Part shown: positions 47,793-52,233 of the stretch, in pieces
Layout of the letters: each line of letters starts with the position of its first letter
How positions within the stretch are numbered: the first letter of the stretch is position 1
Assembly: GCA_913055745.1 (NCBI GenBank)
Contig: CAJXJZ010000003.1
Coordinates: 6,664-70,663, forward strand
DNA from: an uncultured bacterium
Lineage (GTDB): Bacteria > Hydrothermota > Hydrothermia > UBA1063 > CAJXJZ01
Direction: 5' to 3'
Length of the DNA stretch: 64,000 bases
Program-made: the position numbers and the translations under genes
The notes under the pieces: model-generated
Database searches by the model: none
Told to the model about the DNA's origin: nothing
What the model saw: the letters and a program-made list of their open reading frames with translations, nothing else

Positions 47793-48101
47793 TTATATCA
47801 TTTTTATTTCTACATCAACTCCAGCCGGAAGATCCAGCTTAGAAAGTTTATCTATTGTTTCTTGGTTTGGATTACGAATTTCTACGAGTCTTTTATGAAC
47901 CTTTAATTCAAACTGTTCTTGAGATTTTTTATGTACATGTGGTGACCTTATTACGGAAAAGAGTGTTCTTTTAGTAGGCAGAGGTATGGGCCCTGCCACC
48001 TCTGCCTGTGTCATCCTTGCTGTTACCACGATCCTCTTGGCAGACCTGTCCACAAGAACAGGATCATAGGACCTTAGTTTTATTCTTATTTTCGCTTCCA
48101 T
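47793..48101 (-). CDS. rpsJ: 30S ribosomal protein S10
   Basis: IRI.L..YD, GPIPLPT, RSPHV.KKS.EQFE, LP.GVDVEI. Confidence 0.98.
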
Positions 48102-48103
48102 AA

Positions 48104-49312
48104 TTACTCAACTATGTCTGTTACAATACCTGCACCAACTGTTTTTCCACCTTCACGAATAGCAAATCTTAGTTCTTTCTCAATAGCAACTGGTGCTATA
48201 AGTTCTACCTCAAGATTTACATGGTCACCAGGCATAACCATCTCTGTTCCTTCTGGCAATTTAATGCTACCCGTAACATCTGTTGTTCTGAAATAAAATT
48301 GTGGCCTATAATTATTGAAAAATGGTGTGTGTCTTCCACCTTCCTCTTTTGTAAGAACATAGACCTGAGCCCTAAATTTACGATGAGGGTTAATACTACC
48401 TGGCTTTGCAACAACCATGCCCCTCTCTACCTCATCCTTCTTCACACCACGAAGAAGAAGACCAACATTATCTCCAGGTAGCGCCTCATCAAGAACCTTT
48501 CTAAACATTTCTATAGAAGTCACTGTTGTTTTGAGTGGCCTCTCCCTGAATCCAATAATTTCAACCTCTTCTCCTGGCCTAAGCACTCCGCGCTCAACCC
48601 TACCAGTTACAACAGTACCACGACCTGTAATGGAGAATACATCTTCGATCGCCATGAGGAAAGGCTTGTCAACTTCCCTCTCTGGGTCAGGTATATAATT
48701 ATCCATTGCATCAAGAAGTTCAAATATAGGCTTTGTGGCTTCTTCATCATTTGGATTCTGTAGTGCCAAAAGGGCAGAACCCTTAATAATAGGTACATCA
48801 TCCCCAGGGAATTCATACTTATTAAGAAGGTCTCTTACCTCCATTTCAACAAGTTCAATGAGTTCCGGATCGTCCACAAGGTCTACCTTGTTTATAAAGA
48901 CCACTATGTAAGGCACATTAACCTGTCTTGCAAGGAGAACATGTTCTCTCGTCTGTGGCATAACACTATCAGGGGCAGAAACCACCAATATGGCACCATC
49001 CATCTGCGCTGCCCCTGAAATCATATTCTTGATATAATCGTGATGCCCTGGGCAGTCTATATGTGCATAATGCCTTTTCTCTGTTTCATACTCCACATGA
49101 GCAATATTCACTGTCAATATCTTTGTAGCATCCCTTCTGAATAGTTTTGCATCAGCCTTCGCCACCTGGTCATAGTCCATTTCCTCTGCAAGACCCTTTT
49201 GTGCAAGCACTTTAGTAATTGCTGCTGTAAGGGTCGTCTTACCATGGTCTACATGTCCTATGGTACCCACGTTTAGGTGTGGCTTTGTTCTTTCAAATTT
49301 TTGCTTTGCCAT
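48104..49312 (-). CDS. tuf: Elongation factor Tu (variant switch I)
   Basis: [35 protein letters not shown]. Confidence 0.98.
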
Positions 49313-49324
49313 GATTTACCTCCA

Positions 49325-51376
49325 TCATATTTTGCTTATTTTTTCCTTTACTCTTTCAAAGTATGCAACCTTCATCCAAAAGTTTCCTCTCCCCTGAGTA
49401 AGCGACCTCAGGGTATTTGCATACCCTATCATTTTCTTTAAAGGGGCATACGCTCTTATATGGCTTATATATTCATTAACAGGAACCACTTCCTGCACCT
49501 CTCCACCTCTACTTGTTAAATCACCTATAACATTCCCGATAAACTCCTTGGGTGATATAATTTCAACAAAAACATAAGGCTCAAGCAAAACGGGCTCACC
49601 CTCTTTAAGGCCTCTTTCAATGCCACTTCTCAATGCAAGTTCATTTCCAAGCGGCGTAGTTTCATTGCCTCCAACAGAAACAATCTTAACTTCTATATCT
49701 ATTACTGGATAACCCATAACGGGTCCAAAAGCGAGGGACTCATTAACAACTTTTCTTAAATATTCTCGCTCTTCTACCTCTATATTTACATTAGAATCAT
49801 CTACCACTACACCGCTGCCTCTTTCAAGAGGAACCAGTTTAACTCTTGCAATACCAAACTCTCTACCTGTTGATAACTCTTTTTCAAAACGCTCCTCTAA
49901 TTCTACTTCCTTCGTTATTGTTTCCCTGTAAGACACCTGAGGTCTACCTGTTCTAACCTCCACACCAAAATCTTTTTTTAGTCTATCCTCAACAATTTCA
50001 AGGTGTAATTCTCCCATGCCGGTCATAACTAATTGACCTGTATCTTCGTCCTTCTTAACACCGAGCGTCGGGTCTTCTATTTCCAATAACCTTAGTGTTT
50101 GTTCCAGTTTGTCCAATTCACGCACATACCTGGGTTCAATATACTTTGAGACCACAGGCTCTGGGAACTGCATTCCCTTAAAAACTATAGGCTTTTTTAT
50201 GGAAGAAAGCGTATCACCAGTCTTTACATCTTTAATGCCTACAACACCTACAATTTCTCCTGCACGGGCCTCATAAATAGTTTTCTTTCTATTTGCATAC
50301 ATCTCATAAAGTCTCATAACGCGCTCTTCCTTCATCGTCCTTGTATTTAAAACCTTCTCATTCACACGGACACTTCCTGAGTAAACACGCATATAGGCAA
50401 GTGTTCCTGTATGTTTGTCCACTTGTATCTTGAATATCACAGCAGAGAAAGGCTCATTCTCCTCTCTTCTTCTTACCTCTACTTCTCCTGTAATAGGATT
50501 CTTCCCTTCAACTGGTGGCAAATCAAGCGGTGATGGTAAATATTCAACAATGGCATCCATAAGTGGTTGTATTCCAATATTTTTTTTAGCAGAACCAAGA
50601 AAAACAGGAAACATCTCCCCTTTTATAACGGCCTCTCTTACGGCTTTCTTTAGTCTTTTAGGCTCCACAAACCCTTTATCTGAATATTCATCCAGAATTT
50701 CTTCATCTTGTTCTGATGCCGCAAATACTATCTCCTCATATTTTTGCAACATTCCTTTGTCAAAATCTACATCCTCCACCTTGAAGGTTTCACCCGTCTG
50801 GTCTTCCTCTGTCCAAATGTATTTCTTTTTTTCTATTAAATCTACTACACCACGAAAAGCGCTCTCAGAACCAATAGGTACTTCAAAAAGTATAGCTCGT
50901 GTGCTAAGTCTTTTGTGGACAGATTCAAGAGATTTTTGGGCGTCGGCTGCTGTTTTATCCATTTTGTTAAAGAAAATCAAACGAGGTATCTTGTACCGTT
51001 CTGCCTGGTGCCAAACTGTTTCAGACTGAGGCTCAACTCCACTTGAGGCATCAAAGATAACTATAAGACCATCAAGTATCCGAAGGGACCTTTCAACTTC
51101 AGCAGTAAAATCAACATGACCAGGTGTATCTATTATATTAAACTGATGTCCTTTCCAGAAAGTTGTAACAGCAGCACTTACTATAGTAATACCTCTCTCC
51201 TTTTCCTGCTCCATCCAATCTGTTGTTGCAGAGCCCTCATCAACTTCACCAATCCTGTGAATCTTTTTAGAATAAAAAAGTACCCTCTCTGTTGTTGTAG
51301 TTTTTCCAGCATCAATATGTGCTGCAAAACCTATATTCCTTATTTTTTCTATATCCAGAGAGGGGCTGTTCTTCAT
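49325..51376 (-). CDS. fusA: Elongation factor G (divergent domain IV)
   Basis: [46 protein letters not shown]; str-operon position. Confidence 0.92.
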
Positions 51377-51379
51377 TTT

Positions 51380-51850
<471 letters not shown>

Positions 51851-51858
51851 CTACCTCC

Positions 51859-52233
51859 TCAACCCTTTGGTTTTTTGGTTCCGTAAAGTGACCTTGAATT
51901 CCTTCTACCTTCAACACCCGCTGTATCAAGTGCACCTCTTATGATATGGTACTTCACACCTGGAAGGTCTTTTACCCTACCACCTCTTACTAAAACATTA
52001 GAGTGCTCTTGAAGATTGTGTCCCTCTCCTGGTATGTATGCAACCACTTCTTTTCCATTAGAAAGTCTAACTTTAGCAACTTTTCTTAACGCAGAATTCG
52101 GCTTCTTAGGTGTAGTAGTATACACCCTTATACAAACTCCCCTTTTTTGAGGATTGCCCATAAGGGCAGGAGACTTCGATTTTTTAACCTTCTCTTTCCT
52201 TGGCTTACGTACCAATTGATTTATAGTTGGCAT
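51859..52233 (-). CDS. rpsL: 30S ribosomal protein S12
   Basis: [29 protein letters not shown]. Confidence 0.99.

Follow-up and report, generated by a model that had tools for sequence, protein, structure and literature searches.

A str-operon elongation factor G with a degenerate domain IV tip, paired only with EFG II, in an uncultured WOR-3 bacterium

The str operon and its elongation factor

The window, i.e. the whole stretch of 64,000 nucleotides that was analysed, belongs to the genome of an uncultured WOR-3 bacterium (G000; 1.79 Mb in 63 contigs, 95% complete). Between 47.8 and 56.4 kb, its minus strand carries the classical block rpoC-rpsL-rpsG-fusA-tuf-rpsJ (Table 1). The fusA gene of this block encodes an elongation factor G (EF-G), here called copy A, and Pfam finds in it the domains GTP_EFTU, EF-G_D2, EFG_III, EFG_IV, and EFG_C. 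Copy A scores 718.1 bits against the NCBIfam EF-G model TIGR00484, above the cut-off of 659.4, and HMMER aligns it to T. thermophilus EF-G with 633 bits. The initial annotation described the protein as short; its length is in fact unremarkable, as the T. thermophilus EF-G has 691 aa. The same annotation took the GTPase motifs to be intact, and this holds: G1 to G5 are all canonical (G5 is SAKK), and the catalytic His is present.

Most of the features by which an EFG I is recognized are found in copy A. It has five domains, canonical G1–G5, a place within its own phylum in the trees (see below), and a location in the str operon, which is used as an EFG I criterion by Margus et al. 2011 (PMC3150367). 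The one feature that copy A lacks is the conserved domain IV tip, defined here as (K/R)Q(S/T)GG.GQ(Y/F)(G/A) in loop I and DG(S/K)(Y/F)H.VDS in loop II.

Table 1. Features of the str-operon locus, in positions of the window.
Feature	Position	Strand	Remarks
fusA (str-operon EF-G, copy A)	49325-51376	-	ORF and translation, 683 aa; domains G, II, III, IV, V
GTPase core, intact	50957-51322	-	G1-G4 motifs read in the translation
G1, AHIDAGKT	51299-51322	-	copy A
G2, RGITI	51182-51196	-	copy A
G3, DTPGH	51116-51130	-	copy A; includes the catalytic His
G4, NKMD	50957-50968	-	copy A
Domain IV of copy A	49592-49942	-	aa 479-595; folded; fastest-evolving domain of the protein
Loop I, rewritten	49853-49885	-	aa 498-508; aligns to T. 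thermophilus RQTGGRGQYG
Loop II, rewritten	49646-49678	-	aa 567-577; aligns to T. thermophilus DGSYHEVDSS
Third conserved domain IV element, lost	49748-49801	-	aa 526-543; canonical form GGxIPxE[FY]IP
rpsG	51380-51847	-	directly upstream of fusA, 3-nt gap
rpsL	51859-52233	-	upstream of fusA, beyond rpsG
tuf	48104-49312	-	directly downstream of fusA, 12-nt gap
rpsJ	47793-48101	-	downstream, after tuf

Two observations concern the neighbourhood of fusA. In the product of tuf, the sole EF-Tu of the genome, switch I departs from the canonical form: it has a 5-aa insertion and reads KILTV for RGITI, with the Thr kept. This variant is strictly conserved in the families f1, f4, f9, and f11 of the class, and switch I is canonical in f2, f5, f6, f7, f8, f10, and f12; thus, two EF-Tu types occur in a patchy manner within one class. 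In some lineages, rpsG and tuf flank neither a tip-degenerate nor a canonical EF-G gene (L093, L094, and L102 in f9; L212-L214 and other loci outside the class). Therefore, linkage of fusA to the str operon is not universal in WOR-3.

The domain IV tip of copy A

Both tip loops of copy A are rewritten, as had been claimed from the sequence of positions 49600-49920; the HMMER alignment confirms this, and both stretches lie inside that range. In E. coli numbering, loop I carries the changes Q507E, S508L, G509S, G510T, R511G, G512R, and Q513E. In loop II, H583 is replaced by N, S587/S588 are replaced by T/T, and a V-D pair that includes D586 is deleted. Loop II is 1–2 residues shorter in proteins of the copy A type, and two residues shorter in the protein of the window. 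A new loop II motif, T-[PH]-L-G, is found class-wide and is conserved across the class. Most copy A orthologues of the class keep the two glycines of loop I, which read S-T in the window protein. Among the EF-Gs of other phyla fetched with copy A as the query, 78 of 80 keep both canonical loops, and the tip change in copy A is thus not a matter of chance.

The Pfam EFG_IV profile matches copy A over positions 1–97 of 121 only, with 46 bits. An AlphaFold2 model nevertheless gives domain IV a pLDDT of 91.7 and a TM-score of 0.85 to domain IV of T. thermophilus EF-G; as modelled, the domain is not decaying into disorder.

A second EF-G-like gene encodes an EFG II

The initial annotation predicted a second EF-G with intact loops elsewhere in the genome. 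Such a gene exists on another contig (L002:943-2928 on C38, 661 aa), and its product is here called copy C. Its tip loops are canonical (KQTGGHGQYG and GKYHPVDSS). The predicted partner was, however, a translocase EF-G, whereas copy C is not a translocase of the usual kind but an EFG II in which the catalytic His, the G4 Asp, and G5 are missing. Its P-loop reads GHASSGKTTL, KRKITI stands where RGITI is expected, switch II is DTPGF, and G4 is TKMK instead of NKxD. Domains II–V are near those of canonical EF-G, with 446 bits to T. thermophilus EF-G. The assignment to EFG II agrees in all respects: copy C scores 786 bits against NF009381 (cut-off 583), falls inside the EFG II clade with a support of 100 in both the FastTree and the quick IQ-TREE trees, and shows the features given by Margus et al. 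(PMC3150367), i.e. a P-loop with Gly first and Leu last, no RGITI, a divergent G domain, and a conserved basic loop I. Copies A and C are about 31% identical and belong to different subfamilies.

The gene for copy C follows leuS at a distance of 20 nt and is itself followed by proS after 3 nt. EFG II lies directly downstream of leuS in the families f1, to which the host genus belongs, and f2 (L002, L150-L157, L161, L173, L174), and in f1 it is followed by proS; the context differs elsewhere in the class. This position fits housekeeping expression. Codon usage was dropped as a proxy of expression, since it does not separate A and C: codon adaptation is 0.708 for copy A and 0.706 for copy C against a genome median of 0.682, a bias too weak to inform on expression.

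The G4 Asp and the G5 SAx motif are lost in EFG II phylum-wide in WOR-3, where G4 reads NKx[KTSN], TKMK, or SKVE (L002, L140-L174, L238-L242, L252-L265). EFG II of Bacillota, Omnitrophota, Acidobacteriota, and others retains N[KR][LM]D. These sequences suggest that the guanine-nucleotide specificity of WOR-3 EFG II has been altered or lost. A tie between the loss of the G4 Asp and the tip loss in copy A was considered and rejected, as the Asp is lost throughout the phylum, including lineages with a canonical EF-G.

Distribution of EF-G genes in the genus, class, and phylum

The translational GTPases of the host genome are only copy A, copy C, EF-Tu, and IF2. Canonical WOR-3 EF-Gs used as tblastn queries against the whole assembly returned nothing beyond these four, and no EF-G that combines a canonical tip with a canonical GTPase centre was found in the genome. 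The ribosome recycling factor (RRF) is encoded, and A1492/A1493 of the 16S rRNA are unchanged. In the four genomes of the genus (G000-G003), no LepA (EF4) or TypA/BipA scored above the cut-off, and there was no RF3-sized match.

A comparison of 41 genomes from the 12 families of the class distinguishes three groups of EF-G genes (Table 2).

Table 2. EF-G gene groups in the class.
Group	Location	GTPase centre	Domain IV tip	Families
A	str operon in most families	canonical	degenerate in every sequence	all 12
B	outside the operon	canonical	canonical	only f3, f6, f8, f9, f12
C (EFG II)	elsewhere	DTPG[YF], no NKxD Asp	intact	all 12 (f3 copies not fetched)

Only A and C are present in f1, f2, f4, f5, f7, f10, and f11. 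The canonical third copy, B, was found neither in the four genomes of the genus nor in eight genomes of the sister family f2, which are 93–100% complete and two of which are in 3–4 contigs. In one genome, G015, the B gene (L130, on C107) is found as two frames, 541 and 432 aa long, that overlap; a frameshift or an assembly error may be the cause.

Of 63 class genomes, 59 have the A type according to an HMM of the copy A domain IV, and the features of this type occur in an intact ORF in 39 sequences from the 12 families. Run over 201 genomes of the phylum, this HMM separates the class at 96–162 bits. In the rest of the phylum, the scores of canonical and degenerate tips overlap (75–101 bits), and the tip state was therefore read directly from the sequences. 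Every one of the approximately 60 WOR-3 genomes read has an EFG II with an intact tip.

Conservation of the two proteins by domain

Between families, the identity of copy A is 0.59–0.65 in the G domain and 0.37–0.40 in domain IV, and that of copy C is 0.42–0.44 in the G domain and 0.74–0.78 in domain IV. The canonical B is flat at about 0.6. The domain-wise conservation of the two proteins is thus complementary: of all domains, domain IV ranks lowest in conservation in A and highest in C. Domain IV of copy A has an identity of 0.37 where B is absent and 0.40 where B is present.

The same pattern is seen at shorter distance. Within the genus, the identity of domain IV is 0.71 in A and 0.96 in C, and the other domains of A are at 0.81–0.88; the tip-bearing domain of copy C is nearly frozen. 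Between the host genome and its relative G001, copy A is 80.5% identical, compared to 94–97% for S7, S12, EF-Tu, and S10 and 88.6% for copy C; the aminoacyl-tRNA synthetases that flank copy C are at 81–85%. On these figures, copy A evolves like an average enzyme, unlike a core translation factor, and the domain that bears the tip is its fastest. The initial annotation proposed that EF-G function is split in this lineage. Complementary conservation is what a division of labour predicts, and this part of the proposal is strengthened, although the partner is of another type than the one expected.

Origin of copy A and recurrence of tip loss

Copy A was at first sight a member of the spirochaete/mitochondrial EF-G2 class, which the initial annotation brought up for comparison. 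In sparse trees (FastTree and a quick IQ-TREE), A is sister to L206, a tip-degenerate paralogue from Spirochaetota, and a universally conserved glycine of loop 1, the substitution of which marks spdEFG2/mtEFG2 (PMC8203779), is replaced in the window protein (S-T for G-G). The phylogeny nevertheless does not bear out this assignment. A tree that holds A with the canonical WOR-3 B is better than the free tree by 11.8 lnL units. With denser sampling of WOR-3, A nests in the native WOR-3 EF-G clade, which has many members with canonical tips (FastTree, support 95). Constraining this native clade improves lnL by 47.7 with a p-AU of 0.90, the AU p-values being rough because the quick tree searches were poor and constrained trees scored above free ones. 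B lies outside the native clade (FastTree, support 98). A placement of copy A in spdEFG2 is thus rejected, in trees that held no characterised spdEFG2 sequence, and the pairing with L206, lost both in the AU test and upon denser sampling, is a sampling or long-branch effect. No partner of the spdEFG1/mtEFG1 type was found either, the only other EF-G in the genome being the EFG II. Scores against human EF-G2mt and EF-G1mt are 464 and 410 bits for A and 505 and 472 bits for L206, from which no evidence was drawn as the comparison had no canonical control.

Tip-degenerate EF-Gs also occur outside the class, in f13, f18, f19, f22, f30, f33, and f37, and families with canonical tips (f15, f21, f24, f26, f31, f35, f38, f40) are interleaved with these. 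Five such non-class genomes were checked, and in four of them an EFG II is the only partner of the degenerate copy. Forcing all tip-degenerate WOR-3 EF-Gs into one clade lowers lnL by 136 and is rejected (p-AU 0.003, on the same rough scale). As this constraint fails and A nests in the native clade, the tip has been lost in place, and more than once. Wherever the tip was lost, the genome also encodes an EFG II whose tip is intact; throughout WOR-3, the G4 Asp and G5 of EFG II were already gone by the time EF-G lost its tip.

Outside WOR-3, tip-degenerate EF-G paralogues were seen in a Spirochaetota MAG (L206, G044) and in a 4.6-Mb uncultured bacterium (L245, G206). Their loop I contains ..IAGK.. 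or ..QAGK.., and they are always accompanied by a canonical EF-G and an EFG II, like in the classical spd-type arrangement.

Comparison with known EF-G systems

Recycling-only EF-G paralogues are known from Borrelia burgdorferi (EF-G2) and from human mitochondria (EF-G2mt) (Suematsu 2010 and Tsuboi 2009, as related in PMC3150367 and PMC4342817; structure in PMC8203779). Copy A resembles them in that its GTPase motifs are intact, loop 1 is altered, RRF is present, and two genes share the functions of EF-G, the latter being a proposal in the case of A and C. Copy A differs from spdEFG2/mtEFG2 in its native WOR-3 lineage and str-operon location, in that loop II and the third domain IV motif are also rewritten, and in its partner, which is an EFG II without the catalytic His and not a translocase of the spdEFG1/mtEFG1 type.

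A parallel for the proposed roles of A and C is found in P. aeruginosa, where EF-G1A, encoded in the str operon, translocates poorly (75-fold less active) and seems to cooperate with RRF, and EF-G1B, encoded elsewhere, translocates (PMC3832671). The P. aeruginosa proteins are, however, EFG I duplicates with 84% identity, both of them active GTPases, whereas A and C are far more distant and each lacks different conserved residues.

Copy C has its kin in T. thermophilus EF-G-2 (PDB 1WDT), B. thetaiotaomicron EF-G2, and M. smegmatis EF-G2 (PDB 9K10), with which it shares the EFG II signatures listed above, DTPG[YF] among them (PMC3150367). Bacteroides EF-G2 is reported to enable GTP-independent translation (Han et al. 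2023, as cited in PMC12172202 and PMC10294740). In these three species EFG II plays an accessory part beside a complete canonical EF-G, whereas the present genome and many other WOR-3 lineages have no complete EF-G. In addition, WOR-3 EFG II is without the NKxD Asp and G5 that EFG II of other phyla keeps.

Loss of a conserved domain IV tip residue in particular lineages is also known from archaeal and parabasalid EF-2 paralogues, in which the diphthamide His of the tip is lost (PMC6143161). These belong to another domain of life and to another factor, and the abstract of that study mentions no complementary partner with a degenerate GTPase.

Comparative work has held that a lone EF-G is always an EFG I and that only the spdEFG1/spdEFG2 pair can replace EFG I (PMC3150367). 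A tip-degenerate str-operon EF-G paired only with an EFG II is undescribed in the EF-G literature considered here (Margus 2011, Atkinson 2015, Palmer 2013, the recycling papers, the 2026 mycobacterial preprint, and a 2025 AlphaFold study).

How the work of EF-G may be divided

The two jobs of EF-G, moving ribosomes and recycling them, are probably divided in this bacterium in a way that has not been described: the activities that a canonical EF-G unites would be spread over two proteins that have degenerated in opposite halves. Copy A would be a ribosome-dependent GTPase, the domain IV of which is without the residues that contact the codon-anticodon helix. It would most likely serve the GTP-dependent step that relies least on a canonical tip, i.e. 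post-termination splitting with RRF. Copy C, with its strongly conserved canonical tip, would most likely drive translocation without canonical GTP hydrolysis, comparable to Bacteroides EF-G2. Support for the division comes from the gene content, from the complementary motifs and constraint of A and C, from the fast evolution of A next to its operon neighbours, and from the repeated loss of the tip alongside a tip-intact EFG II; the presence of RRF, the unchanged A1492/A1493, and the place of C after leuS agree with it. That A is a GTPase kept for RRF-dependent splitting and that C translocates is, as an assignment read from sequence, an even call.

Several findings in other systems bear on this assignment. 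In E. coli, the substitutions Q507D/E, H583K/R, D586V, and S587P/S588P make translocation slower and lead to -1 frameshifting (PMC7749637). Deletion of loop I in the E. coli protein kills translocation but not recycling (PMC4666400), and loop 1 is altered in the recycling-only factors EF-G2mt and Borrelia EF-G2 (PMC8203779). That copy A does the recycling is what we infer, and in E. coli neither recycling nor translocation survives deletions in loop II (PMC4666400). Loop II of A is both shorter and rewritten, so A would need a different action on bridge B2a, which counts against a splitting role. The fact that most A orthologues keep the loop I glycines also counts against the split, and the loss of the G4 Asp in EFG II, being phylum-wide, is not specifically tied to it. 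With only 3 nt to rpsG and 12 nt to tuf, A should be expressed as strongly as the ribosomal proteins, a level more in keeping with a translocase than with a recycling factor. As for copy C, the EFG II proteins studied so far are accessory, which counts against C as the main translocase: the Bacteroides EFG II is non-essential (PMC10294740), and the mycobacterial one traps ribosomes and has neither GTPase nor recycling activity (bioRxiv 10.64898/2026.05.25.727771).

We put forward only tentatively a stronger form of this division. In WOR-3 lineages without B, the host genome included, all translocation might be performed by an EFG II incapable of canonical GTP hydrolysis. Elongation would then constantly cost one GTP per residue instead of two, the sole GTPase-competent EF-G would serve splitting only, and this state would have evolved repeatedly in the phylum.

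Alternatively, copy A may still be the main translocase and recycling factor, with a rewired tip. The T-P-L-G motif of loop II and the acidic loop I would contact the decoding centre differently, or slow growers would tolerate slower and less accurate translocation, and C would be an accessory or stress EFG II. The tight coupling to rpsG and tuf speaks for this alternative, as do the presence of A in nearly all class genomes, its score above the TIGR00484 cut-off, its vertical inheritance as the native EF-G, the well-folded domain IV of the model, and the class-wide conservation of the new loop II motif; characterised EFG II proteins are, moreover, non-essential or weak translocases (PMC10294740, PMC12172202). 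We nevertheless consider it unlikely, if still a serious contender. Copy A combines changes each of which is deleterious or dominant-lethal in E. coli (PMC7749637), and all three conserved elements of domain IV are gone. A tip rewired for translocation is also at odds with domain IV being the least constrained domain of A and no better kept in families without B, with the evolution of A at a rate much above that of its operon neighbours and above that of C, and with unchanged bases in the decoding centre.

It is improbable that copy A has taken a third GTPase role (ribosome rescue, quality control, or back-translocation) in place of LepA/BipA, with C doing both translocation and a hydrolysis-independent splitting. 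Without LepA and TypA, A and C are indeed the only EF-G-family factors of the genus, and recycling in mitochondria and mycobacteria has been reported to be independent of GTP hydrolysis (PMC8203779; bioRxiv 10.64898/2026.05.25.727771). Nothing positive points to such a role, however. The same A is found in other families of the class that have retained LepA-like genes, and the mycobacterial EFG II cannot cooperate with RRF (bioRxiv 10.64898/2026.05.25.727771).

That the tip reflects the decay of a pseudogene, or an artefact of misassembly or chimeric binning, is hardly credible even though the genomes are metagenome-assembled and that of the host is fragmented and incomplete, as this reading is already contradicted by the recurrence of the same features in intact ORFs across all 12 families and in nearly all class genomes, by the conserved operon context and new tip motifs, by the confident model of domain IV, and by the same two-gene set in nearly closed genomes of relatives.

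Implications

EF-G is treated as a universal and indispensable factor with two functions. In many families of this class, and in several lineages elsewhere in this free-living phylum, no EF-G brings together a canonical tip and a canonical GTPase centre. It is noteworthy that these genomes are without a 'complete' EF-G under the division of labour between A and C and under a rewired tip alike. In these cells, therefore, either the tip residues or GTP hydrolysis by the translocase must be dispensable for translocation, and either outcome bears on the roles of GTP hydrolysis and of the domain IV tip in translocation and in keeping the reading frame. The repeated, independent loss of the tip provides natural replicates. 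If the division between A and C is true, EFG II, a widespread paralogue of uncertain role, would gain an essential job.
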